DNA of 64,000 nucleotides from contig JAZTXM010000002.1 of NCBI GenBank assembly GCA_045636425.1, forward strand, positions 93,951-157,950, written 5' to 3'. Source of the stretch: Clostridia bacterium. GTDB lineage: Bacteria > Bacillota > Clostridia > UMGS1883. Made by a program: the position numbers and the translations under genes. Positions within the stretch are counted from its first letter, which is position 1. Every line of letters starts with the position of its first letter. This document shows positions 139 through 24,613 of the stretch, piece after piece. The notes beneath the pieces were generated by a model. It made no database searches. It saw nothing but the letters and a program-made list of their open reading frames with translations, and had not been told where the DNA came from.

Positions 139-1092
139 TCAATCACAAAGGTGATTTTTTACCATCTCAATAATATAGTTCATATCTTCTGCGGTATATC
201 TTTGGTCACATGGGAGAGGTAAAATATTTTTTGCCATATTGTATTCAAGCTGATCCTTGCCGCAAACATCAAAAACATCTGACCAAAGTGTAGGAATATA
301 GATTTTTTTCTTCTGCAATACTGTTCGGATTTCGGAAGCGTTTTCCACATATAACGGGTACATGAACGCCCCCTCACATATAGTTAAACTAAGTCCATTG
401 ATATTTTTAAATTCCGTGTGCAAATCTATAAAATTCTCAGTTCTCCGGATTCTTACGAAATTGTAGTCAATACCTTTAAGCAGATTTTTTGTAAGCTTCG
501 ACATCTGTCTTAACGGTTCATTTGAAAAGCTTGTATTATTCTCAACATATTCACCATAAAACTCTGACGCCCCAGCTTCAAATCTGCCCAAAATATAATG
601 CATTCTATTATATGATAAATCTATCGGTATATCAAAATCAACAAATGCGTCTGTATACAAGTATCCTCCGTCACAAACTCCAAAAAATTTTCTGCACGTA
701 TATAATGTATCAATACCTGAAACAGGCAATCTGAAAAAATCTTGCGCATTGTCAAGAATAATATTTTTATATTTAGCTTTATACAACACAATCTTTTCGT
801 TACTTATCTGACCATAATAGTTTACTATGTAAACCCATGCCTCATTATCGACGTTTTCAATTATCGGTTCAAAACGTTCATTAATATGATAAAATTCATA
901 CTCACATTTACATTTGATGCAACAGTTTTTTATAGAAGAACATAGAAAATACGGAATGTATATACGTTTGATTTTCTTTGCTCTTATCAGGTATTCAAGG
1001 CAATGTCTTCCACTATTTAATGCAAGCGCATTTTTATGATATTCTTCGCCATTAAATCTATCTAATTCAATATAGCCACCGATTTCCCTCAT
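139..1092 (-). CDS. Short divergent DegT/DnrJ/EryC1/StrS-like PLP-dependent enzyme (sugar aminotransferase/dehydratase family)
   Basis: 317 aa. Blocks resemble DegT family motifs (ILDNAQDFF ~ IEDAAQA; C-terminal ...PLPCDQRYTAEDMNYI). Paralogous to the CDS at 13123-14096. Its start overlaps the next gene by 4 nt, indicating an operon. Confidence 0.45.
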   Translation of the reverse strand: MREIGGYIELDRFNGEEYHKNALALNSGRHCLEYLIRAKKIKRIYIPYFLCSSIKNCCIKCKCEYEFYHINERFEPIIENVDNEAWVYIVNYYGQISNEKIVLYKAKYKNIILDNAQDFFRLPVSGIDTLYTCRKFFGVCDGGYLYTDAFVDFDIPIDLSYNRMHYILGRFEAGASEFYGEYVENNTSFSNEPLRQMSKLTKNLLKGIDYNFVRIRRTENFIDLHTEFKNINGLSLTICEGAFMYPLYVENASEIRTVLQKKKIYIPTLWSDVFDVCGKDQLEYNMAKNILPLPCDQRYTAEDMNYIIEMVKNHLCD

Positions 1093-2285
1093 TTTCTTAT
1101 CACATCTATTTCCTTGTAAATATTCTTAAGCAATGCTGACATAGACTTTTTATCTTCAAACTGCATAAATATAATACCCAAAGCCTTATTTGCGCTGTCA
1201 AAGTATTCTATCTCACTGCCTTTTTTAACGTAAATATTTTTCTGTACAATATGGCTGTTTAAATAATTACTGAATTCAATTTTTTCCAGAATCCCTGAAC
1301 TGTCCACATGAATATTATGCGTAGCCAAAAACCTACTCTCTAAACTTTCATCCACAAGTATGTCAAAGTCACCCATTGCACACTTTAAAGTAGCTTCTAC
1401 CATATCAAAGCCTGTTGCCATTTCAAGCAAATCCGGAATCATATTTCCGCCATTACGAGGACCGTTTTCTATTAAGTAAAGTTTATTATCCTTACCAAAA
1501 ATCATCTCAACATTGAAAGCGCCAAACTTGATTTTTAGTGCATCCATTAAACGTTGTTCTGTTTCTTTTATTATAGTCAATTGTTGCTCGGTAATGCTTG
1601 CCGGCCAGCTTTTTCCTACCGGCACAAGCGGATTGACATTTGTATCACGATGACAATCGAGCAATCCCCAGAAAATTATTTTTCCGTCCAGAACAAAAAT
1701 ATCCCCACCAATTACAAACTCATTTGTCCGTTCTATGTACTCCTCAATAATTACTATATTATTTCTGGAAAATTTCATTGCATTATCATACGCTTGTTTA
1801 AGTTCGGAAATATCTTCCACCTTTGTTATACCTTTACTTCCCGAAGAGTCTGAGGGCTTCACCATCAAAGGCAAACTAAAACTATTAATAATTTGCCCAA
1901 CTTCTGAATAAGAAGTAAAGCTTGCCGAGTGCGGACAATTAAATCCATGCTCTTTTAAAAACTTACGAAACAAGTGCTTTTCTGCCAATATTTCCACCGA
2001 TTCATATGAATTAGTAGGAAGTCCCATTTTTTCAGCTACATAAGCTGCCGTTGGTGCTGCCGGATCAGACGCATATGCAACTATTCCGTCAATATGTTCC
2101 TTCAGTGCAACAGCAAGAACTTCCTCCTTGTCTGTTGTGCTGACTTGATAAAAGATATCCGAACAAAACTGTCCCGGATTGTCAGGTAAATAATCACACA
2201 AAACCGTATAATACCCTAATTTTTTTGCTTTTTCTATTGCAACAATCTGTTGTGGCGATCCTCCAAGAAGCATCAATTTTCTCAT
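1089..2285 (-). CDS. ATP-grasp domain carboxylate-amine ligase
   Basis: 398 aa. Pre-ATP-grasp N-terminus (LMLLGGSPQQIVAIEKAKKLGYYTVLCD) and an ATP-grasp core (LMVKPSDSSGSKGITKV...IIEEYIE). Confidence 0.7.
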   Translation of the reverse strand: MRKLMLLGGSPQQIVAIEKAKKLGYYTVLCDYLPDNPGQFCSDIFYQVSTTDKEEVLAVALKEHIDGIVAYASDPAAPTAAYVAEKMGLPTNSYESVEILAEKHLFRKFLKEHGFNCPHSASFTSYSEVGQIINSFSLPLMVKPSDSSGSKGITKVEDISELKQAYDNAMKFSRNNIVIIEEYIERTNEFVIGGDIFVLDGKIIFWGLLDCHRDTNVNPLVPVGKSWPASITEQQLTIIKETEQRLMDALKIKFGAFNVEMIFGKDNKLYLIENGPRNGGNMIPDLLEMATGFDMVEATLKCAMGDFDILVDESLESRFLATHNIHVDSSGILEKIEFSNYLNSHIVQKNIYVKKGSEIEYFDSANKALGIIFMQFEDKKSMSALLKNIYKEIDVIRK

Positions 2286-2290: not shown

Positions 2291-3736
2291 CTAACCTCTT
2301 TTTTTCAATATACCTTTAGCCATTGATAAAATGTAGTAGAATGACTCGTTTTTTGATACAAATGACACTATAATATATACACTAGCTCCAACTAATGTCT
2401 GCATCACAATCTGTAATAAATCATTAACATGAATTAAATTCACAAGTAAAACTGATATTATCATAAAAACTAATGGAACTATGCAGTTGAATAAATCTTT
2501 AATTTGCTCGAGATAATTATAATTAATCAATGTTTTATTTGGTCGCGCATTAACAAATGAATTAAAAATCGTGGTAAACATCGCACTGATCGCTATCACA
2601 AGCACACTGTAACGCATTGCAGCAATCAACACCAAAATACCAATGATTTTCTTTATAATTTCGAGTTTAAGAAAAATATCGCTTCTACCCATTGCTTTAA
2701 TTGCCTGAAGGTTCGCCGTATGTATAGGTCTCATAGCCATAACAAAGCACGATATCTGAAGAAATTTGACACACGGAAGCCACTTTTCTGTAAGAAGAAG
2801 CCTTACAAACGGCTCTGACACCAAAGCAAGTCCAATCATAGCCGGCATCATTACATAGCTGCTTATTCTTATCGAACGGCGCACCATTAACTTCACCTGT
2901 CCTTTTTCGTCCTGGGCACTGGACAGGGCAGGAAAAAGCACGCTTTGTATGGAAGAATTGATATTTGTTACTATGAGATTGGGAAAGCTTTTTCCCTTAT
3001 TGTAATATGCAAGGTCAGCCGGTCTGTACATTTTTCCTATAACAAGGCTACGAAGCTCATTGTAGCCTGTTTCAAGAAGTGCCGAACAAAGGATTTTCCA
3101 ACCATAGGAAAAGAGCCCGCCAAGTCTTTTAATGGAAAACAACAGCTTAGGTCTCCACCTTACTGTAAACCAAAGCACAACGGTATCTGTTATCGTGTTT
3201 GTCATATACTGCCCTACAAGTGCCCATACACCAAATCCGTGATAAGCCATCGTTATTCCGACTACTGCTGAGGCAAGCGTACCGCCCAGTGTCGACCAGA
3301 AAAATCTGCGGAACATCATATGCCTTGAAACATATGCATGCTGCACACTGTTAACGCCCGCAACTATAAGTCTAAGCCCCATAACGCGCAAGGTGGGGGT
3401 AAGAATTGGCATTGAATAAAACTTTGCTATAATCGGAGCCGTAAAAAACACCAATATGTATATAACTACCGACATTACAATATTAAAATAAAACACAGAT
3501 GAAAAGTCCGTATCATCGGAATCCTTTTTCTGAATCAGTGAATTACCAAACCCGCTTACAACAAATACATTTGCAAGTGCAATAAAAATATTTATAATTG
3601 CAATAGCACCGTAATGCTGCGGATCAAGAAGCCTCGCAAGCACAATCGAAACAGCAAAAGTTACAATCTGCGCCAGTACTCGTTCTGAAAATTTCCAAAT
3701 GAGTCCGGAAAGAACTTTACCTCTTACATTTTGCAT
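2291..3736 (-). CDS. wzx: Polysaccharide biosynthesis protein / Wzx-type oligosaccharide flippase
   Basis: 481 aa, multi-pass membrane protein with a typical Wzx N-terminus (GKVLSGLIWKFSERVLAQIVTFAVSIVLARLL). Confidence 0.75.
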   Translation of the reverse strand: MQNVRGKVLSGLIWKFSERVLAQIVTFAVSIVLARLLDPQHYGAIAIINIFIALANVFVVSGFGNSLIQKKDSDDTDFSSVFYFNIVMSVVIYILVFFTAPIIAKFYSMPILTPTLRVMGLRLIVAGVNSVQHAYVSRHMMFRRFFWSTLGGTLASAVVGITMAYHGFGVWALVGQYMTNTITDTVVLWFTVRWRPKLLFSIKRLGGLFSYGWKILCSALLETGYNELRSLVIGKMYRPADLAYYNKGKSFPNLIVTNINSSIQSVLFPALSSAQDEKGQVKLMVRRSIRISSYVMMPAMIGLALVSEPFVRLLLTEKWLPCVKFLQISCFVMAMRPIHTANLQAIKAMGRSDIFLKLEIIKKIIGILVLIAAMRYSVLVIAISAMFTTIFNSFVNARPNKTLINYNYLEQIKDLFNCIVPLVFMIISVLLVNLIHVNDLLQIVMQTLVGASVYIIVSFVSKNESFYYILSMAKGILKKRG

Positions 3737-3753: not shown

Positions 3754-4707
3754 TTATTTTAATAATTTTCTTTTCAAATTCAAAAGCCCCGGACTTATAT
3801 ATTTCAGTGTTATTTTCAACCTCTTTTTCAATGGAAGCTTTTTATAATATTCTCTGTACGGAGGTCTTTTCAATTCTTTCAACGTCATTATATCGTGACA
3901 CACTGTGATCGCATTTTTCATTCGTTTTTCATGGATGACTTCCGTATATTTGTAATCAGTGTCTCTGTCTATATCCAGCCACAAAGAATCTGTCTTTTTA
4001 AAGTTATTCACACGAAACTCTTTGTCCTTTTTGTTTCTGGTAGTCCATGAACCATTAACGTTGGTCCTGTAGATTGCCATACAATCTTTAAGATAGAGCA
4101 TGCCACCTCTTAAGGAACCGTGTGTCTGCAACAGGAAATCCATATTTGATTTCTGACGAAAAGCAGGTCTGTCTTTATCAATTTCACTCCTGTAGAACAA
4201 AGAGTTAGTAGCTACAAATCCGCCACCGCCTGAGATAACCTGCTCCACGCTAAAAACTGAATTTTCCTCACAAGCTGAAAAACGTTTTGTAACACTATTT
4301 GTTGAAGCGTCAATTATTTCCGCCTGATGGGCACAGATATCAATCTCCGGATGCTGCTGCATTGCATCATACTGTTTCTGAAGTTTGTAGGGATCTGTCC
4401 AATAATCGTCACCTTCACATACTGCCACGTATTTTCCTTTTACACGAGGAAACTGAAAACTCACACTTATCTTTACACCTTTAGAATATTGGTTTTCAGT
4501 CTGGTAAACAGGCTTTATCAGTTCGGGATACTTTTTTTCATATTCTCTTATAATGTCTGCTGTTTTATCTGTAGATGCATCATCATGTATCAGTACTTCA
4601 AACGGGAAATTCGTCTTTTGCATAATAAAGCCATCAAGTGCATCTTTTATGTATGGTTCGTGATTGTACGCATTGCATATAACGCTTACTGCAATTTCTT
4701 CGTTCAT
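3754..4707 (-). CDS. Family 2 glycosyltransferase
   Basis: VSVICNAYNHEPYIKDALDGFIMQ...VLIHDDASTD is a GT2 signature. Confidence 0.8.
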   Translation of the reverse strand: MNEEIAVSVICNAYNHEPYIKDALDGFIMQKTNFPFEVLIHDDASTDKTADIIREYEKKYPELIKPVYQTENQYSKGVKISVSFQFPRVKGKYVAVCEGDDYWTDPYKLQKQYDAMQQHPEIDICAHQAEIIDASTNSVTKRFSACEENSVFSVEQVISGGGGFVATNSLFYRSEIDKDRPAFRQKSNMDFLLQTHGSLRGGMLYLKDCMAIYRTNVNGSWTTRNKKDKEFRVNNFKKTDSLWLDIDRDTDYKYTEVIHEKRMKNAITVCHDIMTLKELKRPPYREYYKKLPLKKRLKITLKYISPGLLNLKRKLLK

Positions 4708-4754: not shown

Positions 4755-5300
4755 TCACTTTAAAGGTTTTAAAATCAATTCTCTGGATTGTGTGACTAAA
4801 GTATTATCGGGAATTTCTCCTTTTACAACACACCCTGCACCAATCACACAGTTTCTACCAATCCGAGTTCCCCGTAATATAATAGCATTTGCCCCAATCC
4901 AAGAATTCTCTCCAACAAACACTTCTGACTTATTAAATCCCTTTATACGACCGGTTTTATCAAATCTATGATCATGATCATAGATTGTTACTCCCGGACC
5001 TAAAGAACAAGAGTTTTCAATGCTTATTTTTTCATGGCAGACAATTGTTACGTTTCTGTTCATTGTTACATTTTTGCCAATATTAATGGTCCCTCCCACT
5101 GTTGCTACATATGAATACTGAGCTATAGAGCTACCTCTGCCTATTGATATTTTTCCGCCCTGCCTTGCAATTATATCTACTTTTTTTCCAAAAGCCACTC
5201 TTTCTTCGCATTTTAATTTTCCAAGCTTCTTTATGACTTTCAAATCTTTTCTCAAAATACCAAAGACTTTTTTTATATAATAACTAAAATCCATATTCAT
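4755..5300 (-). CDS. Hexapeptide-repeat (LbH) acetyltransferase
   Basis: 181 aa with repeated [LIV]G-x4 hexapeptide units (IGKNVTMNRNVTI...IGANAIILRGTRIGRNCVIGAGCVV). Confidence 0.75.
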   Translation of the reverse strand: MNMDFSYYIKKVFGILRKDLKVIKKLGKLKCEERVAFGKKVDIIARQGGKISIGRGSSIAQYSYVATVGGTINIGKNVTMNRNVTIVCHEKISIENSCSLGPGVTIYDHDHRFDKTGRIKGFNKSEVFVGENSWIGANAIILRGTRIGRNCVIGAGCVVKGEIPDNTLVTQSRELILKPLK

Positions 5301-5360: not shown

Positions 5361-6284
5361 TCACAACTTTATCATTTCACCTAATTTATAATCCCATTCT
5401 TCCGGCTCCAAGCACACCATTCCGCTGCCCGGAAAGAATGTTAATTCTCCAAAATATATTTTATCGTTAATCTCATAAAAATCAACTCGTAGGAAAGAAA
5501 TTCCCTCCGATAATGTTTTAGCCAGTTCAAGCATTTTTTCTAAGTTTTCAGGTTTTTTGGGTAGCTGTGAAAAAGGCTCATAATCCAATCTTTTAAACGG
5601 AGCCTGTTCCCAATCCAGAGTAACAAAACTTATTCTTGCCGTTGCATGATTTTCCAGGCCCGTTGAAACATAGGCAAATTGCGGTACTCCCCCAAAACAA
5701 TAAAATTTATAATCAGTCAAGCCTTCTTTTGAATTAACATCATCTGTATCTACCATGAATTTCTCTGCGATAATTCTGGGCTTTATATTCTTGTAGGGCC
5801 ACTCTCGGTTCTGCCAGAAATAGTTCCGCTTCATACATTTATCTATTTTTAACTTCGCTGCACTTGCATCAAACAGTTTCTTATCTCTGCATATTACAAG
5901 CCCTCCGCTGTCATGAGTGCATTTGAGGACAAATTGGTCGGGCAAGCTGTCAAAGTCAATTTCCTCAAAACTATCCCATACCCCAAGAAGCGGTATAAGA
6001 TATTCTTCGCCTATTTTTTTCTCTATGTGTTTTCTGACCTCATATTTGTCTGCCATTTTTGTATATTCAGGATTTCTGTCGTGAAGTTTTAACCACTGGA
6101 GCTTTTCGTTAAACGTCTGCGGATTTTTAAGATTCAGTTTTTTTTCCATTTCAAGTCTATATTTCGCAGCGAGGAACACTTTATCAGGAAGAATTCTGAA
6201 TATAGCACATTTGTTTAAAAAAACCTTCATAGCCAGCTTTGGATTAGAAAACGTAAGTTTCAATTTTCTAAACATATTATTCAT
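5361..6284 (-). CDS. TupA-like ATP-grasp protein (teichuronopeptide-type amide-forming enzyme family)
   Basis: 307 aa. Matches the family pattern (LNLKNPQTFNEKLQWLKLHDRNPEYTKMADKYEVRKHI...VLKCTHDSGG). Paralog of the CDS at 9725-10651. Confidence 0.65.
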   Translation of the reverse strand: MNNMFRKLKLTFSNPKLAMKVFLNKCAIFRILPDKVFLAAKYRLEMEKKLNLKNPQTFNEKLQWLKLHDRNPEYTKMADKYEVRKHIEKKIGEEYLIPLLGVWDSFEEIDFDSLPDQFVLKCTHDSGGLVICRDKKLFDASAAKLKIDKCMKRNYFWQNREWPYKNIKPRIIAEKFMVDTDDVNSKEGLTDYKFYCFGGVPQFAYVSTGLENHATARISFVTLDWEQAPFKRLDYEPFSQLPKKPENLEKMLELAKTLSEGISFLRVDFYEINDKIYFGELTFFPGSGMVCLEPEEWDYKLGEMIKL

Positions 6285-7515
6285 CCCCCTCGTTAGACGT
6301 TATCCCACTCTCTGATGGTTTTTTCAATCTGCCTACAGGCAAAAGCAAAAACGCAAGCATTATCCACAATTTTTTATCATAATAAGTAACCATCGCCATC
6401 TCAAGAACTGTTCTGACAACAAGTATAACCAAAAGAAGCCTGCCCTCGCTTGACTTTTCTTTGTTTATATTATTAAATGCAGACAGATACATAGAATAGT
6501 ACAAAAGGAATCCAATAAGTCCTATACCCACAAGAATTTCTATAAAATTATTGTGAGAATACATTCTATATCCACTTACGTACCTGAAGTTATTTACTCC
6601 ATGCCCTATGAGCATTTTTTCCTTAAAAAGCCGCCACCCCGTCCCTATGAATTTCAGTCTTGCCCTGGTAGAACCATCACCGCCGGATTGACCGAGAAGA
6701 GCATTTATACTCTCTTCAAATCTCCTGCGCACCATTTCAAACATTGGCATCTGTATCGCTATATAGAACAAAATCCCTGCAAATAACGTTACCCCAACAA
6801 TTTTATATAGCTGCCTTACTCCATACATTTTGTATACAAGATACAAAATTCCTATGATTGCAATAAGCAATGCTTTTTTTGAGCCACTTGACATAGCACA
6901 TATGAACGAGGAACACATTATAGCAAAATGAAACAGCTTGTGCCTTTTCCTGTACATCATATAATAAAATGCAATAAGCGTTGTCGTAGCGTGATTCATA
7001 CCATACACGTTTGCCTGGCTGATATCACCGCCAAGTCGTTGGGCCTTAGTGGATAACATTGTTTTAATCAAATCACTTACGCCATATGCATAGACCGTAT
7101 ATACTACAAAAGCTATCCCTCCGATATACATTGCACTGATATACTTTTTATACGCATCTTTATTTTCGTAAAAAAGATTGTATACCAAATAGAATAAAAG
7201 GAATATTTGCCACATAGTCTTTATATTTATAAGTGCTAAACGTTGATTCGTCGCCCAAAAGAATGACGCAAATATCCATGAACAGGTAAGATATGCCAGC
7301 ATAAATGACTTGCCGAAATACATTCTTTTTCTTTCCAATATATGAAGCATCGTAAACCCTGCAAAAAGTATAAAAGCTACATATGTGTATATAAGAGCAC
7401 TTTTATCGCTCATAAACAAATAATCTGTTACCATATACACCGCAAAGAAAAACTCCGCCATTCTTAAAACCAAGGTTTTCTTTTGTCTATTTCTCATTTC
7501 AATATTCATTGTCAA
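6277..7515 (-). CDS. wzy: Wzy-type polymerase / O-antigen-ligase-like integral membrane protein
   Basis: 412 aa with more than 10 predicted hydrophobic spans, embedded between glycosyltransferases in a glycan locus. Confidence 0.5.
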   Translation of the reverse strand: MTMNIEMRNRQKKTLVLRMAEFFFAVYMVTDYLFMSDKSALIYTYVAFILFAGFTMLHILERKRMYFGKSFMLAYLTCSWIFASFFWATNQRLALINIKTMWQIFLLFYLVYNLFYENKDAYKKYISAMYIGGIAFVVYTVYAYGVSDLIKTMLSTKAQRLGGDISQANVYGMNHATTTLIAFYYMMYRKRHKLFHFAIMCSSFICAMSSGSKKALLIAIIGILYLVYKMYGVRQLYKIVGVTLFAGILFYIAIQMPMFEMVRRRFEESINALLGQSGGDGSTRARLKFIGTGWRLFKEKMLIGHGVNNFRYVSGYRMYSHNNFIEILVGIGLIGFLLYYSMYLSAFNNINKEKSSEGRLLLVILVVRTVLEMAMVTYYDKKLWIMLAFLLLPVGRLKKPSESGITSNEGDE

Positions 7516-7549
7516 TGTTCCTTACTGTAAAAAGCAATAAATTTTACTA

Positions 7550-8629
7550 TTATATTTCTTCAATAAATCTAAGCAATCTTTTTGCACTATTTGACGCCTC
7601 ATACTGTTCAACAGCAAATTCCCGTGCATTTTTCCCCATTTCAATCGCAGCTTTGTAGTCACTTGCAATTTTCACAATTGCTGCCGCCATACTCTCCGCA
7701 TCACCTACCGGCACTAAAAGTCCGCTTTTCCCGTTTACAATCATTTCAGAGGGTCCCGTCGGGCAATCGGTTGATATACACGGAAGTCCTGTAGCCATTG
7801 CCTCCAAAAGAGCATTGGGCATACCCTCGTGATCAGACGAAAGGATAAATGCATCTGCCTCGGAAAGAGTTTCGGCTATATTATTAGTTCGCCCGCATAA
7901 AGCGATTTTTCCCTGCATTCCAATGCTATCAATATACTGCTCCATCTCCCTCTGCATAGAACCTGCTCCATATATTTTAAGTTCTATGTCCGGGCACCGA
8001 TTTACGGCAAGCTTAAATGCATCACATAAAAGCTTGTGATTTTTTTGTTTTTCAAGTCTTCCGGCGGTCATAAACACCAAAGGAAGAGTGGTTTTATATT
8101 CTTTTTCTATCTGGGTAACAGATGGATGTAAAGGATTTGAGAACACAGCAATCTTCTTTTGCACACGTTCACTAAAACACGCCTTTTGTTCTTCATTTTG
8201 GACAATACAACGTTTTGATAAAGCTATAGATATCTTTCTTGGCAATCTCAGACATATATTCTTAGAACGACTACCGGGATTATTGCGGACAGTTTCTATA
8301 ACATCAGTCTTCAGGAACATACTCGCCGCCGTTGCCAACATTCCGGTATGTGCGATAAATGGTATTACAACATCTATATTATTTTCCTTAAAAACAGAAC
8401 GCATTTTTTTAATTTTGCTGAATATGCTTACCTGCTTTGACTGTGCATAGCTTTCATACAAATAAATTTTTTTCACATCTGCGTAGGTTTCGTATTCCTG
8501 CTCGGTCCTATAAGTGATTATCAAGAATATCTGGTCACTAAGCTTTGAAAGCTCGCTTGACCATATTGATACAACACGTTCTGCCCCTCCGCTCGTTAAT
8601 GAAGGTGTCATCAGAGCAATCCTTTTCAT
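7550..8629 (-). CDS. Family 4 (GT-B, GT1/GT4-type) glycosyltransferase
   Basis: C-terminal E-x7-E region (SSDHEGMPNALLEAMATGLPCISTDCPTGPSEMIVNGKSGLLVP). Confidence 0.85.
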   Translation of the reverse strand: MKRIALMTPSLTSGGAERVVSIWSSELSKLSDQIFLIITYRTEQEYETYADVKKIYLYESYAQSKQVSIFSKIKKMRSVFKENNIDVVIPFIAHTGMLATAASMFLKTDVIETVRNNPGSRSKNICLRLPRKISIALSKRCIVQNEEQKACFSERVQKKIAVFSNPLHPSVTQIEKEYKTTLPLVFMTAGRLEKQKNHKLLCDAFKLAVNRCPDIELKIYGAGSMQREMEQYIDSIGMQGKIALCGRTNNIAETLSEADAFILSSDHEGMPNALLEAMATGLPCISTDCPTGPSEMIVNGKSGLLVPVGDAESMAAAIVKIASDYKAAIEMGKNAREFAVEQYEASNSAKRLLRFIEEI

Positions 8630-8659
8630 TCAATCTCTTCCTCTCTTTTTAAGTTTCAC

Positions 8660-9721
8660 TTATAACCCTATAACCTTAGCCCACAAATTTATTATGTTTT
8701 CGGTTTTGAATTTTTCCACACTTTTCTTGCCATTTGCCGAAATTTTATCACGCAAGCTTTCATTTTCTATCAAACTGACAATCGCTTTTTCCAGAGCATT
8801 CTCATCCCCTACCGGAACAAGAAGTCCGTTTTCGCCGTTTACTATAACTTCATCCGAGCCTGCACATTCGGTAGAAACACACGCAAGCTCCATCATCATC
8901 GCTTCCAGAAGAGCATTTGAAAGCCCCTCGTAATTTGAAGACAGAACAAAAATCTGTGCATCATTTATTTCCTGATGGAGACCGGCGACATTTCCTTTAA
9001 GAAAAACGTTGTTTTCAACATTCAGATGTTTTATATGTTCCTGCAATTCTGCACGCAACTTTCCTTCGCCATATATTTCCAGTACATAATTGGGATACTT
9101 CTTGCAGACTTTCGCAAAACTGCTGATCAGCATTTTATGATTCTTTTGTTTTTCCAATCTTCCTGCACTTACTATTTTATTCTTTTTTATTTCAGCAACA
9201 TCCTGGCTTACCTGCACGGGATTGCCTATCACAACAGACTTACGCTGTATTTTTTCGGAATAAAACTTCTTAGCTCTTTCAGTTTGAAAAACAACACAAT
9301 CGCAGCGCTTATAAAAGAAATTTATTGCCTTTTGAATAACCATATTTCTCTTTACCGCACCTGGGTCTATTCTCTCGCTTGTAATATGCCTTACCTTTGC
9401 AAGCTTGCAGGCAATATCTGCTACGGGGCAGTTTTCAGCAATGAATGAAACAACCACATCGGGTTTTATTTCCTTCAGCTGCTTTATCAACTTGAATAGC
9501 ACCGTACCCAATTGCTTTTTGAAACTTTTCTTATCATCGGACAAATTCAGGATTTTTATTTTTTCATCCAGGGCGTAACCTACTTTGTTGTGCCAAAGCA
9601 TTATTATGGTTACGTCCCATCCGATATTTGCATAATAATTACTTAAGATTGAAACGACGCGTTCTGCTCCTCCTCGTCCCATAGATGTAACTACGAAAGC
9701 TAATTTTTTATTTTCTGTCAT
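8660..9721 (-). CDS. Family 4 glycosyltransferase
   Basis: SSNYEGLSNALLEAMMMELACVSTECAGSDEVIVNGENGLLVP. Confidence 0.85.
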   Translation of the reverse strand: MTENKKLAFVVTSMGRGGAERVVSILSNYYANIGWDVTIIMLWHNKVGYALDEKIKILNLSDDKKSFKKQLGTVLFKLIKQLKEIKPDVVVSFIAENCPVADIACKLAKVRHITSERIDPGAVKRNMVIQKAINFFYKRCDCVVFQTERAKKFYSEKIQRKSVVIGNPVQVSQDVAEIKKNKIVSAGRLEKQKNHKMLISSFAKVCKKYPNYVLEIYGEGKLRAELQEHIKHLNVENNVFLKGNVAGLHQEINDAQIFVLSSNYEGLSNALLEAMMMELACVSTECAGSDEVIVNGENGLLVPVGDENALEKAIVSLIENESLRDKISANGKKSVEKFKTENIINLWAKVIGL

Positions 9722-9724
9722 TTC

Positions 9725-10651
9725 CTATTTTCCTCTTTTTCTGCGTTTTTCAGGCAAAACAAAGTTTTTTCCCATTTCAAAATCGAATTCGTCAGGTACA
9801 AACCGAACATATCCGCTGGCATTAAAAAACGTAAGCTCTCCAAAAACAACTTTTCTGTCTATATTGTAGAAATCAACTCTTGCGTGAGGAAAGGGTGCAG
9901 AAAGAATTTCTGCATACTCCACCATTTTTTCATAGTTTTCGGGTTTTTGGGGTTGATTTTCCATAGGTGCAAAATCGGCACGTCTTACAGGAAGAAGATT
10001 AAAATCTCTGTCAAAAAAGCCCATTACGCCCGCAGCATGATTTTTGGTGTAATTCTCCATCTTGTAAGAGTAATGCACCTTTCCATTAAAACAGAAGAAC
10101 TTATAGTCGTGTAAGTCGCCGCTTTCATCGTTTTTCAAAAGGCGCTCAATTATTACACGATGTTTTCTGTTTTCGTAAACCCACTCACGCCCCGAAGATT
10201 TTTTATTCGTCGGTTTTTCAAGCCATGAAAGCATAGTGTTTCTTAACTTACCTAAATCCTCGTTGTCTTTGTTTTCGACCAGCACAACAGAATTCCCTCC
10301 GCCGCCAAGGGTATCTTTTACAACAAACGCCCCGGGAAGTTTTTCAAAATCAATGTCATCTGTTGAAGTGAATACGCCATAACATTCGTTAAGTATTTCT
10401 TCCAGGCCACACTCTTTGACATAATTTCTCACATCGGCTTTGTCACTACACACAGCCATCAGTTCTTCTTTATAATTTAATTTATACCACTGAATCTTTT
10501 CACTGTATCGCTGAGGATTTTTTAAATTCAGTTTTCTGCCTAGCTTTATAAAGTATTGAAATCTGACCATTGCGGAGTCGGGAACAAAACTGAACATTTT
10601 CAGAATTTTTATTCTTAAGTTTCTGCTTTTCAATATGTTTTTATAGTTCAT
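9725..10651 (-). CDS. TupA-like ATP-grasp protein (second paralog)
   Basis: 308 aa. LNLKNPQRYSEKIQWYKLNYKEELMAVCSDKADVRNYV...VVKDTLGGGGNS. Same architecture as 5361-6284. Confidence 0.65.
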   Translation of the reverse strand: MNYKNILKSRNLRIKILKMFSFVPDSAMVRFQYFIKLGRKLNLKNPQRYSEKIQWYKLNYKEELMAVCSDKADVRNYVKECGLEEILNECYGVFTSTDDIDFEKLPGAFVVKDTLGGGGNSVVLVENKDNEDLGKLRNTMLSWLEKPTNKKSSGREWVYENRKHRVIIERLLKNDESGDLHDYKFFCFNGKVHYSYKMENYTKNHAAGVMGFFDRDFNLLPVRRADFAPMENQPQKPENYEKMVEYAEILSAPFPHARVDFYNIDRKVVFGELTFFNASGYVRFVPDEFDFEMGKNFVLPEKRRKRGK

Positions 10652-11745
10652 TTTGCTAATCTCCCTAACTCTGTCATATATTTGTCAATAACTATATTTC
10701 TGTCAAATTCTTTTTCAACCTTTTTTCGTCCACGAAGTCCCATTTCTTTTCGTTCTTCAAAGGACAACGCAAGGAATTTCTCAATTTTTTCAATCACGTC
10801 CTGTGTATTTTTCTGCTTTACAATATAGCCGTTTACACCGTCATCTACAATTTCACGGCAACCGCTGCGGTCTGTGGTAATTATCGCCCTGCCGCTGGCA
10901 CAGGACTCGAGAAGCACATTGCTCATTCCCTCGGGATAATACGTGGGATGAATTGTACAATGAATTTCCTTATGTATTTCACGTATATCGCGAAGTCTGC
11001 CATGGTAATTTATAATTCCTTTTTCGTGAAGCTGCCTCAGTTTTTCCTGATATGCCTCCTCACAAGAACCGCAAACATGGAAAACTGTATTCGGGTACTT
11101 CTCCTTTATATACTCCGCCGCTTCAAAGTACTGGTCGGCACCCTTTTCTTTCATAATGCGGGAGATGAATGCAAATTCCACTGTATCCTTTTCAGGATAA
11201 GGCATAAGCCCAAACCTCTCAAGATTTACCCCCGAACCGGGAAGAAGCTCATGTTTTCCTCTCGCAATTTTCTTTTTAACAAAGAAATCCATATTCTCTT
11301 TATTCTGAAAGAACACCTTTTTAACCCGTATAAAACCGAGCTTGTACAAAAAGACTGTAAGAAGCTGCATCTTTCCACCGTTTTCAACAGCACTGCCAAG
11401 CCCCGTTATATTCGGTACGCAGGGAATTCCCAAAACGGCACATGCCATAGCTCCGTAAATATTGGGCTTTATAGTATATGTAAAAACCATATCGGGTCTT
11501 TCCCTCAGAAGTATCTTTAAATATTCGAAAAACAGCTTCACATCAGTAAATACGCTTGTTCCGCGCCTTTGAATATTTTTTACAAAGGAAACTTTGCAAC
11601 CTATTTCGGTAAATTCCTCTGTTTCCTCATGCTCGGGGCAATAGATTGCGACATCGTGCCCCTCATCGCGGAATTTCTTCATAACCTCAATTCTGAATGA
11701 GCGAAGTCCCGTTATTGAATTTGTCAGTATAAGTATTTTTGACAT
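10648..11745 (-). CDS. Family 4 glycosyltransferase
   Basis: MSKILILTNSITGLRSFRIEVMKKFRDEGHDV... Start chosen at the internal ATG (M7), which has GAGGGG 5 nt upstream and a 3-nt gap from the DegT stop. The track ORF extends to 11763. Confidence 0.75.
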   Translation of the reverse strand: MSKILILTNSITGLRSFRIEVMKKFRDEGHDVAIYCPEHEETEEFTEIGCKVSFVKNIQRRGTSVFTDVKLFFEYLKILLRERPDMVFTYTIKPNIYGAMACAVLGIPCVPNITGLGSAVENGGKMQLLTVFLYKLGFIRVKKVFFQNKENMDFFVKKKIARGKHELLPGSGVNLERFGLMPYPEKDTVEFAFISRIMKEKGADQYFEAAEYIKEKYPNTVFHVCGSCEEAYQEKLRQLHEKGIINYHGRLRDIREIHKEIHCTIHPTYYPEGMSNVLLESCASGRAIITTDRSGCREIVDDGVNGYIVKQKNTQDVIEKIEKFLALSFEERKEMGLRGRKKVEKEFDRNIVIDKYMTELGRLAK

Positions 11746-11747
11746 AA

Positions 11748-12923
11748 TTACCCCTCGAAGCATTCTTTAATAATTTTAATAACCTTTTCCTGCTGTGTTT
11801 TGGTCATCTTAATATCACTGGGGAGGCACAATCCTCTGCGGAATATATCCTCGCCTACGTTATCCCCGTTTGTGATGAAATCATAGCCTTGATATACCGG
11901 CTGCATATGCATGGGCTTCCATATAGGACGAGCCTCTATATTTTCTTTTTCAAGAGCCAAGCGGATTTTTTCGGGATTTGCTTTTTTCATTGCGTCTTCG
12001 TCAATCAGCATACAGCTGAGCCAGAAATTAGGCACGCTATGTCCCTCGTAGGGATTCATGGAAACTGGGAGTCCCTTAAGACCTTCTTTATACCTGAAAT
12101 AAATGTCCTCTTTCAGCTTTCTGTGTTCTTCCAGATGAAGCATCTGTCCCCTTCCGATACCTGCCACAACATTACTCATACGGTAGTTATATCCGATGTG
12201 TTCATGCTGGTACCATGGAGCTTGTTCCCTTGCCTGAGTTGAGAAAAAGCGAACTCTCTGCACGGCTTCTTCATCGTCAGAAAGAAACATTCCGCCGCCC
12301 GAAGTAGTAATGATTTTGTTTCCGTTGAAGCTTACAGCACCATACTTTCCGAAAGAGCCTGTTTGCTTTCCTTTATATGTAGCGGAAAGCGATTCTGCCG
12401 CATCTTCTATAAGAATCACTCCGTACTCATCGCAAAGTGCCTTGATTTCATCAATTTTGGAGGGAGTGCCGTAAAGATGCACAAGCATTACAGCCTTGAC
12501 TTTTCCCTTATACTTTTCAAGTGCAATTTTAAGTGCGGCAGGATCCATATTCCATGTATCACGCTCACTGTCTACAAAGACCTGTGTCCCGTTTTCATAG
12601 CTGACAGGATTTACAGTTGCGGCAAAGGTTAAATCGGAACATATAACAATATCTCCGTCTTTCACCCCTGCCAGTTTAACTGCAAGGTGCAATGCGTGAG
12701 TTCCTGCCGTCATCGCCGCTGCTGCCTTTACTCCTACAAAGGAAGCCATCTCATTTTCAAATTCTGTTACATTTTTACCTAAGGGGGCTACCCAATTTGT
12801 ATCAAATGCCTCTTTCACAAAAATCTGTTCTTCTCCATGCATGGTTGGTGAAGAAAGCCATATTTTTTCGCCGCTACTCATTCCTCGCACCCTCTTTTCT
12901 GACAGTTTTTGAGCATAATGCAC
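11748..12923 (-). CDS. DegT/DnrJ/EryC1/StrS family PLP-dependent sugar aminotransferase
   Basis: 391 aa with the canonical motifs (SFNGNKIITTSGGGMFLSDDEEA...YNYRMSNVVAGIGRGQM). Confidence 0.85.
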   Translation of the reverse strand: MHYAQKLSEKRVRGMSSGEKIWLSSPTMHGEEQIFVKEAFDTNWVAPLGKNVTEFENEMASFVGVKAAAAMTAGTHALHLAVKLAGVKDGDIVICSDLTFAATVNPVSYENGTQVFVDSERDTWNMDPAALKIALEKYKGKVKAVMLVHLYGTPSKIDEIKALCDEYGVILIEDAAESLSATYKGKQTGSFGKYGAVSFNGNKIITTSGGGMFLSDDEEAVQRVRFFSTQAREQAPWYQHEHIGYNYRMSNVVAGIGRGQMLHLEEHRKLKEDIYFRYKEGLKGLPVSMNPYEGHSVPNFWLSCMLIDEDAMKKANPEKIRLALEKENIEARPIWKPMHMQPVYQGYDFITNGDNVGEDIFRRGLCLPSDIKMTKTQQEKVIKIIKECFEG

Positions 12924-13122
12924 ACAATTCTAACATTATAATTATAGTACACTTGTTCAAAATAGTCAATGATTTTCTCATCCAAAGTGTTTTTTCATTG
13001 CAAGAAGAACAAATCCCCTGCCTTTTCTCAAAGAAAAAATCTATCTTTCCATAAAACATTTGACATAACAAAGAAAAAAGTATATGATATATTTGTGATA
13101 TTATGTATAGGAAGTATTTTTA

Positions 13123-14096
13123 TGAGAATCGAGATTGGAAGCGAATTTTGGGATATACCCACATCCGAAAAAAATCAATTATTCCCGAAAGATACAAATT
13201 GGTTTATTTCAGGTCGCAGTGCTCTTAAAGCAATAATAAAGGACAATAATTTCAAAACAGCCGCATTACCCGACTGGTGCTGTGAAAGTATGGTAACTCC
13301 CTTCATTAACGCAGGTATTGAGGTTTCATTTTATCCCGCTTTAGAAAGAAAAATCCGTACAAATGCAGATGCCTTGCTCATTCTTGACTATTTCGGTTAT
13401 ATTCAGGATATAAAACTGTGTGATTTTGATGGAGTTGTTATACGCGATGTCACACATTCTCTTTTTTCTGCCAACTATACTGATGCCGATTATTGTTTCG
13501 GAAGTCTTAGGAAATGGGCAGGATTCTCTACCGCGGGATTTGCGTGGGGATTTAAATCTCCTGTTTCCTATGAAGACCCTCTGCACGATTATGTTGATTT
13601 AAAAAGAACTGCTATGGCAGAGAAAAAGGCCTACATCAATGAGAAATCAGACGTCAAAAACTACCTTGACAAATTCAGCTCCGCTGAGAATATGCTTGAG
13701 CATATAGGTGTTTTGCCTGCCGATCCTGATGATGTGGTTTCAGCATCAAAACTTGATGTAGATTTCATAAGGAACCGTAGGAGAAAAAACGCACTGATAC
13801 TGCTTGATGCATTTCGTGATATTGCAATTTTTCCTGAACTTAAAAACACCCAATGCCCGTTAGCTGTTCCCATAAGAGTCAAAGACCGCGACGGGTTACG
13901 ATTTCATTTGATACAAAAAGAAATATACTGCCCTATTCATTGGCCGAAAGCTGCCTGTCATACCGATGTTTCCCCGGTTACAGAGGAAATTTACGACAGT
14001 GAACTGAGCCTTATATGCGACCAACGCTACGATGAAAATGATATGCGCCGCATTGTTTCTGCGGTTAAAGAATTTTTGAATAAGGAGAATTCATAA
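13123..14096 (+). CDS. Short divergent DegT-like PLP-dependent enzyme (paralog of 139-1092)
   Basis: Start at MRIEIGSEFW. ISGRSALKAII, VVIRDVTHSLF and the C-terminus ...CDQRYDENDMRRIV parallel the protein at 139-1092. Preceded by a TTGACA-17-TATGAT promoter. Confidence 0.45.
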
Positions 14097-15131
14097 ATGT
14101 TAACTGTATACACCACACAGCAAAGAGAACAATGGGACAATATAGTGCGTACCTTCAGAAGCCACGATGCTTACTGGCTCTGCGGATATGTAAAGGCATT
14201 TGAAATTCATGGTGACGGAACCGCCCTTCTTTTTCATTATGAAGATGATTCCGTAAAGGGCATAAATGTTGTAATGAAACGCGATATTTCTGATGATTCC
14301 AGATTTAGCTCTGTTATAGAAAAAGGCAAATATTTTGACCTTGCAACACCCTACGGATATGGCGGCTGGCTGATTGAAGGAGATAGTACAGACAGGCTTT
14401 TTTCCGAGTACGAAAAATGGTGTGCTGAAAACAACATTATTTCCGAATTCGTGCGATTTCATCCGGTTCTTGAAAACCATCTCCTTGCAACGGCATATGA
14501 TGTAATTGGGCTGGGATATACGGTTGCACTCGACTTATCCTCACCCGAAACCATATGGGCAAATATTACGAGCAAAAACCGTAACGTAATACGCAAGGCA
14601 CAAAAAAATTCCATTAAAATTTATAATGGTCGTTACCCTGGAATTTACGAGATTTTCCGTGAAATCTATAACTCTACAATGGACAAGGACAATGCAGATT
14701 CTTACTATTACTTTTCTCCCGAATTCTACGAAAGTGTCTGCAATGACCTTCCTCATAATGCTCAGGTTTTTTATGCTGAAATGGAAGGTAAAGTTATAGC
14801 CGCATCAATTATGCTCACAACAAACGGCAGAATGAATTATCATCTTTCCGGTTCCGTAAGAGAATATGCCAATCTCGCACCTTCAAATCTGTTGTTGTAC
14901 GAAGCTGCACTGTGGGGGTGTGCCAACGGTTACAAAACACTATACCTCGGTGGTGGCGTCGGAAGCGGCGAGGACAGTCTTTTTAAATTTAAGAAATCCT
15001 TCTATCGCAGTGATGATTTACCAAGATTTTATATAGGCAAAAAAATCTTCAATCACGAGTTATATGATTATCTTACCGGATTGAGAAAAGATTTGCCGGA
15101 TAGTGGATTTTTTCCTCGTTACAGAGCTTAA
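14097..15131 (+). CDS. FemAB-like / GNAT-fold (Acetyltransf_6-type) aminoacyl transferase
   Basis: 344 aa. VIRKAQKNSIKIY...VFYAEMEGKVIAASIML...NLLLYEAALWGCANGYKTLYLGGG resembles the FemX/BioF2-like family. Confidence 0.55.
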   Translation: MLTVYTTQQREQWDNIVRTFRSHDAYWLCGYVKAFEIHGDGTALLFHYEDDSVKGINVVMKRDISDDSRFSSVIEKGKYFDLATPYGYGGWLIEGDSTDRLFSEYEKWCAENNIISEFVRFHPVLENHLLATAYDVIGLGYTVALDLSSPETIWANITSKNRNVIRKAQKNSIKIYNGRYPGIYEIFREIYNSTMDKDNADSYYYFSPEFYESVCNDLPHNAQVFYAEMEGKVIAASIMLTTNGRMNYHLSGSVREYANLAPSNLLLYEAALWGCANGYKTLYLGGGVGSGEDSLFKFKKSFYRSDDLPRFYIGKKIFNHELYDYLTGLRKDLPDSGFFPRYRA

Positions 15132-15157: not shown

Positions 15158-15808
15158 ATGTACGCTAAATTTTTTAAAAGATTTCTGGATGTTTTTCTTT
15201 CCGCTTTGGCACTACTGTTATTTTGGTGGGTGCTTGCAATTATTTCCATTATAGTAAAGATTAATATGGGCAGTCCTATACTCTACAAATCCGAACGCAT
15301 GGGCAAGGACGAGAAGCCTATAAAACTATATAAATTCCGTTCTATGACTAACGAAACAGACGAAAACGGAATACTTCTTCCGGCACCACAAAGGCTGACA
15401 AAATTCGGACGTCTTCTCCGCAGTACAAGTCTTGACGAATTACCATCTCTGCTTAACATACTAAAGGGTGATCTCAGCATTGTAGGACCAAGGCCCTTAC
15501 TTATGAAGTATAAACCCTTTTATTATGAGCACGAGAGAGTTCGCCATAATATCCGTCCGGGACTGACCGGCTGGGCACAAGTAAATGGAAGAAATCTCGT
15601 TTCCTGGGATGATAAATTCAAAATGGATATTGATTATGTCAACAAAATGTCTCTATGGCTTGACATAAAGATACTTTTTTTAACGGTGTATAAGGTATTC
15701 AAACGTTCAGACATAGTTCACGATGACCAAACCACCCAGAGTTTATACATAGTACGTTCATTTATGAACATCGAAGAAAATATTGAAGTTGAGGAGTATA
15801 GAAAATGA
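15158..15808 (+). CDS. Priming sugar-phosphate transferase (PglC/WbaP C-terminal-domain type, bacterial sugar transferase family)
   Basis: 216 aa with a single N-terminal TM. Conserved KLYKFRSM...RLTKFGRLLRSTSLDELPSLLNILKGDLSIVGPRP. Confidence 0.85.
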   Translation: MYAKFFKRFLDVFLSALALLLFWWVLAIISIIVKINMGSPILYKSERMGKDEKPIKLYKFRSMTNETDENGILLPAPQRLTKFGRLLRSTSLDELPSLLNILKGDLSIVGPRPLLMKYKPFYYEHERVRHNIRPGLTGWAQVNGRNLVSWDDKFKMDIDYVNKMSLWLDIKILFLTVYKVFKRSDIVHDDQTTQSLYIVRSFMNIEENIEVEEYRK

Positions 15809-17073
15809 AAACATTGAAAGGAAAGCGTCTTTTGGTTATAAGTAGCGACGGCAGCGATATCGAATTTGTAAAAGCAGCAAAAGAATTGGATATGGAAGTA
15901 GTTTGTTGCGACCGTTATGAGGATTGGAACATTAGCCCTGCCAAGCTTATCAGCGATGAGGCCTGGAATATGGATTATTCCGATACAGAGGCTGTTGCAA
16001 AAAAATGTAAAGAAGAAAAAATAGACGGTGTTATAGCCGGTTACGGCGAGGACCGCGTTCTGGCTGCTTGCAGAGTTTCCAAAGCTATCGGCACACCTTT
16101 CTATGCAACAGAAGAACAGATAAACATTACACGCGATAAAAGACTTTTCAAAAAAATATGTAATGAGTGCGGCGTAAACACTCCCCGCGAATACTGTTTC
16201 GGACTTCCAATGAAAAGAGAAGACCTTGACAAAGTAAAGTATCCGGTAATTGTAAAGCCATCTGACAACGGCGGACGAAAGGGTATTTCTGTGTGCTTAA
16301 ACGAAGCACAACTTATGGATGCCATCAACGATGCCGCGGATTATTCAAAAACCGGCGAGGTTGTTGTAGAAGAATACCTTACAGGAGTTGAGCTTTCTGC
16401 TATTTATACTATTTCCAATGGTGAGGCGAGCTTTTCCTGTTTGAATGACAAGTACATATCCCAGGAAAACGAAAATTCCAGCTTGTGCGATTTTGTTATT
16501 ACTCCGTCAAGATTTTATGACGAATATATCCATACAGTAGATGCCGGAATAAAAAAGTTGCTGAAGCATATCGGAGCAAAGAACGGTGTTGCTAATTTCC
16601 AGTTAATTGCGGGTCCCGACGGAATAAAAGCTTTTGAAATGGGTTACCGTGTGAACGGAAACAATGACTTTAAAGTTATACGCAAATATAACGATATAGA
16701 CTTTATGAAGATGCTTATATCCTATGTTACTACCGGTGACATGGGCGATTCTCTTTCTAAAGACAATCCGCTTTTCAAGGAGTACTACTGCACTCTCACG
16801 CTCCTTCTCAAGGCCGGAAAAATTGCAAAAACAGATTACAGCAAGCTTGAAGAACTTGACAACATCGACGATATTTCCGTTTGGAAAAAGCCCGGAGATA
16901 TAATTTATAACACCGGCACAAATGCACAGAAAGCAGGTATGATTAAGTTTTCTGCAAAAAACATGGATGAGGTTAAACGCACAGTACAATTTATCCACGA
17001 AAATCTGATTGTGGAAGACGAAAACGGAAACAGCATGAAAATGAAACTGTTTGATACAAAAAGACTTGATTGA
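15805..17073 (+). CDS. ATP-grasp domain carboxylate-amine ligase
   Basis: 422 aa. LLVISSDGSDIEFVKAAKELDMEVVCCD...YPVIVKPSDNGGRKGISVC...VVEEYLTG. Overlaps the upstream gene by 4 nt. Confidence 0.7.
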   Translation: MKTLKGKRLLVISSDGSDIEFVKAAKELDMEVVCCDRYEDWNISPAKLISDEAWNMDYSDTEAVAKKCKEEKIDGVIAGYGEDRVLAACRVSKAIGTPFYATEEQINITRDKRLFKKICNECGVNTPREYCFGLPMKREDLDKVKYPVIVKPSDNGGRKGISVCLNEAQLMDAINDAADYSKTGEVVVEEYLTGVELSAIYTISNGEASFSCLNDKYISQENENSSLCDFVITPSRFYDEYIHTVDAGIKKLLKHIGAKNGVANFQLIAGPDGIKAFEMGYRVNGNNDFKVIRKYNDIDFMKMLISYVTTGDMGDSLSKDNPLFKEYYCTLTLLLKAGKIAKTDYSKLEELDNIDDISVWKKPGDIIYNTGTNAQKAGMIKFSAKNMDEVKRTVQFIHENLIVEDENGNSMKMKLFDTKRLD

Positions 17074-20517: not shown

Positions 20518-20715
20518 AAAAACCACCTTTGTGTAAATTTGCCTTATTATATCAAATTTCTCCCCGTAAGTCAATACTCAGCTATTTAAGTTCCATTCCC
20601 AAAAGCACCTGAATAAATTTCAAATTTTCTATTGACAATTTCTTTAAAGCATGTTACCATATAACCGTATCGGAATACATATTATAACCATTTCAGAATG
20701 TATGGAGGTTTTTTT

Positions 20716-22392: not shown

Positions 22393-22419
22393 ATGTTCCT
22401 TTTAATTTCTAAAAAAAAC

Positions 22420-22448: not shown

Positions 22449-22487
22449 ATAGAAAGATATGTAAAATGGCAAAAGAGGTATCTATTT

Positions 22488-24598: not shown

Positions 24599-24613
24599 TA
24601 TCAGGAGGAAGTT

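Follow-up and report, generated by a model that had tools for sequence, protein, structure and literature searches.

Two diverged TupA-like ATP-grasp ligases encoded in the Wzx/Wzy-type surface-polysaccharide cluster of an uncultured member of the Clostridia

The locus and its two TupA-like ligases

Near one end of a 64,000-nucleotide stretch of DNA from an uncultured Clostridia bacterium (GenBank assembly GCA_045636425.1, contig JAZTXM010000002.1, positions 93,951 to 157,950; hereafter the window), we observe a Wzx/Wzy-type surface-polysaccharide cluster that encodes two TupA-like ATP-grasp ligases, here called ligase A and ligase B. The host is probably a gut organism. Both genes lie on the minus strand, at the coordinates given in an original prediction made from the DNA letters alone, within a series of closely packed open reading frames (ORFs) that runs from 12923 to 139 and forms a 12-gene operon. 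The layout also confirms that ligase A stands beside a Wzy-like polymerase gene and ligase B between two GT4 glycosyltransferase genes, as had been described. The start of the ligase A gene overlaps the stop of the Wzy_C gene by 8 nucleotides (nt); NCBI annotates the start of ligase A at an internal methionine to give a protein of 304 residues. The ligase B gene overlaps the GT4c stop by 4 nt, and 3 nt separate its own end from the GT4b gene. The setting of both ligases is that of a cell-surface polysaccharide locus, with Wzx, Wzy, three GT4 and one GT2 glycosyltransferases, an acetyltransferase and an aminotransferase, together with a Bac_transf gene on the adjoining plus strand. The left edge of the window truncates the operon, and the locus probably continues past it. 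The features are listed below in operon order, followed by those of the plus strand.

12941–12969, minus strand: near-consensus sigma-70-type promoter, TTGACT-17-TATAAT, with 11 of 12 consensus matches, heading the 12-gene operon
11748–12923, minus strand: DegT/LegC-like sugar aminotransferase, first gene of the operon (PF01041, 311 bits; TIGR04181, 360 bits, below its cut-off); its true start is likely the ATG near 12880, where a ribosome-binding site is present
10648–11763, minus strand: GT4c glycosyltransferase (Glycos_transf_1 and Glyco_trans_4_2), the upstream partner of ligase B
9725–10651, minus strand: TupA-like ATP-grasp ligase B, 308 residues (PF14305)
8660–9721, minus strand: GT4b glycosyltransferase, PglJ/PglH-like (Pfam and NCBIfam), directly downstream of ligase B
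7550–8629, minus strand: GT4a glycosyltransferase, PglH-like (Pfam and NCBIfam), between GT4b and Wzy
6277–7515, minus strand: Wzy-type repeat-unit polymerase (Wzy_C match)
5361–6284, minus strand: TupA-like ATP-grasp ligase A, 307 residues (PF14305)
4755–5300, minus strand: hexapeptide acetyltransferase, WbbJ/Mac-type (family profile match)
3754–4707, minus strand: GT2 glycosyltransferase (Pfam)
2291–3736, minus strand: Wzx flippase (Polysacc_synt_3, 332 bits)
1089–2285, minus strand: classical ATP-grasp ligase, L-amino-acid-ligase-like (CPSase_L_D2, ATP-grasp, weak LAL_C2 match)
139–1092, minus strand: protein of 317 residues without a family match, the last operon gene visible
12969–14096, plus strand: ORF of 375 residues without a Pfam or NCBIfam match
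14097–15131, plus strand: FemAB-like protein, aminoacyl-transferase-type (Acetyltransf_6 and FemAB)
15158–15808, plus strand: short PglC-type Bac_transf initiating phosphoglycosyltransferase (PF02397, 208 bits)
15805–17073, plus strand: second classical ATP-grasp ligase (Dala_Dala_lig_C and ATP-grasp_4)

Both TupA-like proteins match the PF14305 (ATPgrasp_TupA) model over its full length (positions 1–241 of 241), ligase A with 231.1 bits and ligase B with 147.9 bits against a Pfam cut-off of 25 bits, in agreement with the predicted family assignment. The conserved blocks quoted in the prediction are present in both ORFs, as LNLKNPQTFNEKLQWLK and VLKCTHDSGG in ligase A and as LNLKNPQRYSEKIQWYK and VVKDTLGGGG in ligase B. 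The N-terminal motif of the family, LNLKNPxTFNEKLQWxK, spans residues 50–66 of ligase A and 41–57 of ligase B; P55, K61 and K66 are invariant within it, and conservation reaches at least 90% at L50, L52, E60, Q63 and W64. The invariant columns of the alignment further include K121/112, E161/156, E174/169, D191/182, K193/184, R266/258, D268/260 and E280/272 (numbered as in ligases A and B, respectively). By analogy, the conserved lysine of the FV(L/V)K strand, the glycine-rich loop, the glutamate in (I/V)I(A/I)E and the RVD...GELTF segment would contribute to ATP and Mg binding.

In AlphaFold2 models built from 75-sequence alignments (predicted local distance difference test scores of 94.6 for ligase A and 93.7 for ligase B), both proteins are predicted to adopt an ATP-grasp fold like that of D-Ala-D-Ala ligase, LysX and RimK, and the top Foldseek matches are LysX, ArgX, Ddl and RimK at a probability of 1.0. 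Identity to the classical ATP-grasp ligases (D-Ala-D-Ala ligase, LysX/ArgX, RimK and DcsG) is 10–18%, with approximately 200 of 308 residues aligning. The N-terminal region that carries the family motif is helical in both models and appears to lie outside the part aligned to the classical enzymes. A phmmer search against PDB sequences returned noise only, and hence no solved structure of the family, and no NCBIfam model covers either ligase. The name 'carbonic anhydrase', which NCBI gives to the close B-type homologues P0135 and P0244, is unsupported by Pfam or fold matches and seems to be a misannotation that has been passed on.

Clustering at 50% identity divides this large family into 10,813 clusters (E ≤ 1e-10). 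In many relatives of approximately 450 residues, found in both subfamilies described below (for example P0007, P0011, P0155 and the gene at 9974–11288 of L021), the C-terminal ATP-grasp half (DYKF...RVD...GELTF) is repeated in tandem; this form accounts for 27 of the top 150 family representatives. The two classical ATP-grasp ligases of the locus both give weak matches to the L-amino-acid-ligase C-terminal domain, and the one at 1089–2285 is a possible maker of an amine donor or a possible extra amide-forming step. Counted with the two TupA-like proteins and the FemAB-like protein, they bring the potential amide-bond formers in this polysaccharide locus to five.

Divergence of the ligases and their partner genes

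Ligases A and B can be aligned over 281 residues with 37% identity (E = 2e-59), and the view of them as clearly diverged paralogues holds. Many relatives in other organisms are 60–68% identical to A or to B, and for every match one of these ligases is clearly the nearer relative. Because these relatives are closer than A and B are to each other, the ligases represent two old subfamilies and not recent duplicates. A joint alignment contains 57 positions that are conserved in both subfamilies and 22 that are fixed differently between them, 9 of which lie in residues 58–100 of ligase A, in the N-terminal module. Both genes are intact and under purifying selection. The ratio of nonsynonymous to synonymous substitution rates (dN/dS) of ligase A is approximately 0.13 against an orthologue of 84% identity; for ligase B, the proportion of nonsynonymous differences (pN) is 0.095 and that of synonymous differences (pS) 0.708 against an orthologue of 83% identity. 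The comparison of ligase B with its counterpart in locus L164 gives a dN/dS of 0.54, on too few substitutions to carry meaning. Recent duplication is ruled out by the low mutual identity and by the greater nearness of each ligase to foreign orthologues, and pseudogene status by the full length of both proteins and dN/dS values well below 1. Neither of the two pitfalls named by the original prediction thus applies, as the ORFs are not near-identical and contain no frameshift or truncation.

We compared the locus with 160 related loci and with several exact-protein loci; we call well-sampled the 62 loci whose context covers 18 kb or more. Two or more full-length TupA-like genes are present in 15 of these 62, the copies being almost always diverged (35–59% identity). 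The arrangement is therefore common and ordinary, and the unusualness that the prediction implied for two copies in one locus is not borne out.

The B-type genes keep consistent company. In at least eight unrelated loci (L021, L082, L083, L090, L091, L094, L095 and L101), the B-type gene directly follows a GT4c homologue (44–56% identical), and in closer relatives the same neighbour is 97% (L164), 87% (L167) and 63% (L161) identical to GT4c. A Bac_transf gene precedes the GT4c and B-type pair in L021, L082, L090, L091, L094, L101 and L161, so that an initiating transferase, GT4c and TupA-B form a recurring cassette. An SDR epimerase stands between Bac_transf and GT4c in L021 and L091, and in L021 it is fused to GT4c. 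The company of A-type genes is looser: across 96 loci, the upstream neighbour is a GT4 like GT4b or GT4a in 17 and a Wzy-like polymerase in 14–16, and besides Wzy and GT4 we found no single conserved partner for A-type genes among the related loci. The co-variation with glycosyltransferases that had been proposed as a check is thus seen for ligase B with its upstream GT4, and ligase A is associated with Wzy or GT4 through adjacency and fusion.

The sister locus L161 lies by the same tRNA-synthetase gene as the locus in the window, with flanks of 90–92% nucleotide identity. It retains GT4c, TupA-B, GT4b, GT4a, Wzy and TupA-A at 63–74% protein identity, both ligases at 63–67%; its orthologues of GT4b, GT4a, GT2, Wzx and Wzy are 66%, 66%, 62%, 72% and 74% identical, respectively, and its homologue of the ATP-grasp ligase at 1089–2285 is 42% identical. 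In L166, the Wzy orthologue is 70% identical. A partly syntenic Alistipes locus, L021, has the order PglD-like, Bac_transf, epimerase fused to GT4c, TupA-B, GT4, GT4, EpsG-type polymerase and TupA-A, followed by an epimerase, an acetyltransferase and Ugd. At 11113–13231, L161 also has a third TupA-like gene (58% identical to ligase A) beside a PGA_cap gene (CapA-like, poly-gamma-glutamate capsule), in the position of the acetyltransferase of the window. A polysaccharide pyruvyl transferase at 18480–19685 of L161 could be an alternative source of a carboxyl group.

Although ligases A and B are stand-alone proteins with no glycosyltransferase fusion, many relatives are joined to other proteins of polysaccharide assembly. 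TupA domains follow a GT4 domain in L013 and P0411 and precede one in L023; they follow a GT8 domain in P0393, a Wzy_C domain in P0427, P0428, P0470, P0476, P0493 and P0501, an O-ag_pol_Wzy domain in P0440, Wzx in P0452 and a DUF2334/polysaccharide-deacetylase domain in P0399. Two complete TupA domains occur in one polypeptide in 8 of 150 representatives; P0366 also belongs to the fused or double-domain polypeptides. The TupA domains that are fused to Wzy are A-like, with 44–50% identity to ligase A versus 31–41% to ligase B. The joining of a cytoplasmic ATP-dependent ligase to a membrane polymerase is unexpected and, as far as our literature searches show, has not been described.

Possible amide chemistry and its alternatives

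The TupA family takes its name from a gene required for a copolymer of polyglutamate and polyglucuronate. TupA of Bacillus halodurans C-125, a protein of teichuronopeptide biosynthesis, is the founding member of PF14305, and to our knowledge its reaction has never been defined biochemically. Ligases A and B resemble it by the Pfam model and in their context of a cell-surface polymer in a Firmicute. The only biochemically characterised member of the family is the C-terminal domain of Cj1438 from Campylobacter jejuni (Cj1438C), which in an ATP-dependent reaction forms an amide between the C6 carboxylate of glucuronic acid (GlcA) and (S)-serinol phosphate or ethanolamine phosphate (PMC11800379, PMC11800397). 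The domain acts after the sugar has been incorporated, and UDP-GlcA is not a substrate (PMC11800397); its authors describe it as having a TupA-like ATP-grasp fold (PMC11800379, PMC11800397). We used residues 453–776 of the protein from strain NCTC 11168, with the sequence taken from the supplement of the paper; the HS:19 homologue is HS19.11.

Over the whole domain, ligase A is 31% identical to Cj1438C (E = 8e-43) and ligase B 29% (E = 2e-26). All three share the lysine of FVLK and the motifs REW, (I/V)I(A/I)E, YKF, RVD and GELTF, and six residues that are invariant in 75 sequences from both subfamilies (K121/112, E174/169, R266/258, D268/260, E280/272 and T282/274) align with Cj1438C. Like A and B, the Campylobacter enzyme is embedded among the glycosyltransferases of a surface-polysaccharide locus, and its order of action, transferase then amidoligase then next transferase, matches the gene order GT4c, TupA-B, GT4b. 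The systems differ in that the ligase of Cj1438 is fused to a GT2 domain and serves a pathway with an ABC transporter and a Kdo linker, whereas A and B stand alone in a Wzx/Wzy-dependent pathway of a Gram-positive Clostridia bacterium. The Cj1438 locus has one ligase and this locus two paralogues. We saw no counterparts here of Cj1435 or of the Campylobacter genes that supply serinol phosphate and ethanolamine phosphate, Cj1435 being the one compared directly by sequence, and no Ugd is visible in the window. CfmP of Klebsiella pneumoniae and WemR of Proteus mirabilis share with A and B the TupA-specific N-terminal module and the ATP-grasp domain. The conserved catalytic glutamate of CfmP is essential and the protein is linked to oxidation of a fimbrial histidine, and WemR is predicted only, for the addition of an amino acid to O-antigen (PMC13419641). 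CfmP is independent of surface polysaccharides, whereas A and B lie inside a glycan assembly operon.

The analyses establish the family, fold, intactness, purifying selection and subfamily divergence of the ligases, their partner genes and the operon layout. We infer from these likenesses and from the partner genes an amide chemistry for both ligases, together with the residue that each would modify, the order in which they would act and the identities of carboxylate and amine. Two different amide decorations on the repeat unit are the most likely explanation as a whole, at a probability of roughly 0.55; this is the best reading of the two genes by analogy, and it is unproven. Both ligases would act at the membrane, on its cytoplasmic side; their substrate would be the repeat unit of a Wzx/Wzy-dependent surface polysaccharide, carried on undecaprenyl diphosphate. 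As in the case of Cj1438C, each would phosphorylate the carboxyl group of a sugar already present in the growing unit, and the resulting acyl-phosphate would react with an amine to give the amide. Since ligase B shares a conserved cassette with the initiating transferase and GT4c, it may act early, on the residue that GT4c would add as the second sugar, before extension by GT4b. The A subfamily travels with Wzy or GT4 and is sometimes fused to them, which suggests that ligase A may modify a different residue later in assembly, after which the finished unit would be polymerised by Wzy. The two are non-redundant, given their identity of 37%, the 22 subfamily-fixed positions and the retention of both in L161. 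The idea of two amide linkages, already put forward in the original prediction, is thus supported in part: homology to Cj1438C, divergence, purifying selection and distinct partners speak for it, and its implied unusualness does not stand.

Several points weigh against this explanation. Gene adjacency does not fix the order of action or the modified site, and a single family member has been characterised biochemically. The TupA-like CfmP acts independently of surface polysaccharides (PMC13419641), and the deacetylase fusion of P0399 is a hint that for some members the substrate may instead be a sugar amine. Motif searches and Pfam scans of most large ORFs detected no 6-dehydrogenase for UDP-glucose, UDP-GlcNAc or UDP-ManNAc in the 64-kb window. 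As far as L161 is visible, no enzyme of this type is seen there within 10 kb either. The carboxylate substrate is consequently unaccounted for in the window, although the operon runs off its left edge, and we regard the missing dehydrogenase as a gap rather than a contradiction because of this cut. Among the well-sampled loci, 35 of 62 (56%) contain a UDP-sugar 6-dehydrogenase within 10 kb by motif search, and Pfam confirmed both of the two matches checked; L021 combines both ligase types with Ugd and two epimerases. The supply of the amine is likewise unclear: the window contains no clear amine-donor pathway and no homologue of the Cj1435 phosphatase (tblastn, no match better than E = 1.8), and its sole DegT-family gene resembles sugar aminotransferases; in Campylobacter, the dedicated amine-donor genes are those of the pyridoxal-phosphate enzymes Cj1436 and Cj1437.

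The same gap in uronic-acid supply would fit a reaction of reverse polarity, in which a small carboxylic or amino acid is activated by one ligase or by both and used for N-acylation at the free amino group of an amino sugar such as the 4-amino-4,6-dideoxy-hexose expected from the DegT enzyme. The locus combines a DegT/LegC-like aminotransferase and a PglC-type transferase without a PglD-type N-acetyltransferase, and the deacetylase fusion of P0399 points the same way. We consider this alternative unlikely: the B-type cassette is conserved with GT4c and not with DegT, most B-type loci have no close DegT homologue and differ in their initiating transferases, Ugd occurs in 56% of the well-sampled loci, and the sole characterised member activates a sugar carboxylate. 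Slightly less likely still is sequential action at one site, where a sugar carboxylate would receive an amino acid from one ligase and the other would extend from the free carboxylate of that amino acid, possibly with the classical ATP-grasp enzymes and the FemAB-like protein, to build a short peptide side chain on a teichuronopeptide-like glycopeptide polymer. The five potential amide-forming enzymes of the locus, the polypeptides with two complete TupA domains (8 of 150), the third TupA-like gene beside PGA_cap in L161 and the polyglutamate–polyglucuronate copolymer behind the family name would all suit such a scheme; the three genes that separate A from B, their distinct conserved partners (GT4c versus Wzy or GT4) and the common occurrence of B-type genes without an A-type gene, and vice versa, do not.

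A role other than amide formation, with the ATP-grasp fold used for sugar phosphorylation, for ester formation or on a non-polysaccharide target such as a protein, has a precedent in the independence of CfmP from surface polysaccharides. We judge it improbable, since the best structural matches of A and B are carboxylate-amine ligases, the similarity to Cj1438C spans the whole domain, and the genes are translationally coupled inside a glycan assembly operon and have relatives fused to glycosyltransferases, Wzy and Wzx. Most improbable of all is that both ligases make the same modification and that one is a dispensable back-up left by shuffling of the locus. Polysaccharide loci are mosaic, and one related locus, L013, does contain a pair of 93% identity, but A and B are only 37% identical with 22 subfamily-fixed differences, are both under purifying selection and both kept in the diverged sister locus L161, and have different conserved partners.

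Beyond two amide decorations, one may speculate, with considerable doubt, that the five amide-forming enzymes produce a heavily aminoacylated, glycopeptide-like surface polymer, with the A-type ligase as a membrane-tethered partner of Wzy, to which it is joined in one polypeptide in other bacteria, and the amide serving as a checkpoint that licenses polymerisation or flipping. If so, the locus would stand for a class of peptide-decorated capsules that is widespread among gut Clostridia and Bacteroidota and as yet uncharacterised.

The locus does not represent a new kind of system; A and B are members of a known, little-studied family and are useful as a test case. What sets the locus apart from Campylobacter is the occurrence of stand-alone ligases in the Wzx/Wzy pathway of a Gram-positive anaerobe, without the Campylobacter amine-supply genes and in two subfamilies with distinct partners. 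Surface-polysaccharide loci with TupA-like proteins are widespread among gut Firmicutes, Bacteroidota, Saccharibacteria and other groups, and the Campylobacter enzyme alone has a known reaction. Amino acids and amino alcohols in amide linkage to uronic acids alter the charge and antigenicity of capsules and O-antigens, and the enzymes that form such amides are unassigned in almost all bacteria. The two subfamilies of this locus separate cleanly and differ in their conserved partners, GT4c for B and Wzy or GT4 for A, from which one can derive testable rules to predict the sugar that a given ligase modifies.

Neighbouring genes and further observations

The last visible gene of the operon (139–1092) gives no match in Pfam, NCBIfam or the PDB; a homologue of 51% identity co-occurs with ATP-grasp and Wzx genes in L073. 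At the other end, the operon promoter falls within a stretch of 65 nt that matches the head of L161 at 98% identity. This stretch (12906–12970) and a second one of 56 nt (22404–22459, 100% identical) match positions 2069–2253 of L161, where they are approximately 65 nt apart, compared with 9.4 kb in the window. The difference in spacing indicates that the window contains an extra block relative to L161, between the operon promoter and the tRNA-synthetase gene; it comprises the genes for the 375-residue protein, the FemAB-like protein, Bac_transf, ATP-grasp, LysR, MBOAT, SGNH-like and DctM proteins.

Within this block, the C-terminal part of the protein encoded at 12969–14096 weakly resembles sugar aminotransferases (PDB 5u21, E = 0.004). 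A promoter-like site on the plus strand (13060–13088) suggests that the true start of this ORF is later than the annotated one, which overlaps the divergent promoter. Next to a LysR regulator gene lie an MBOAT/DltB-like membrane acyltransferase gene (18059–19498, minus strand; 167 bits to TIGR04091, under the cut-off of that model) and, paired with it, a gene for a 349-residue protein that has weak GDSL/SGNH matches only (19525–20574, minus strand). The pair probably serves the O-acylation or D-alanylation of a surface polymer.

Near the locus, by the adjacent tRNA-synthetase gene, are a WecA/TagO-type Glycos_transf_4 gene and a UDP-GlcNAc 2-epimerase gene (23498–25753, plus strand). The rest of the window contains housekeeping genes (ATP synthase, UvrAB, RelA and RecJ) and genes for the sporulation protein YabQ, an SLH-domain protease and a choloylglycine hydrolase. 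Its AtpD is identical, or almost so, to proteins from uncultured metagenome-assembled genomes labelled Clostridia bacterium or Ruminococcaceae bacterium; the window as a whole contains no tRNA genes and no Rfam matches. The choloylglycine (bile-salt) hydrolase (44012–44959, plus strand) and the trypsin-like protease with SLH and Fn3 domains (45549–48212, minus strand) are located farther along the window, and their presence fits a Gram-positive organism of the gut.

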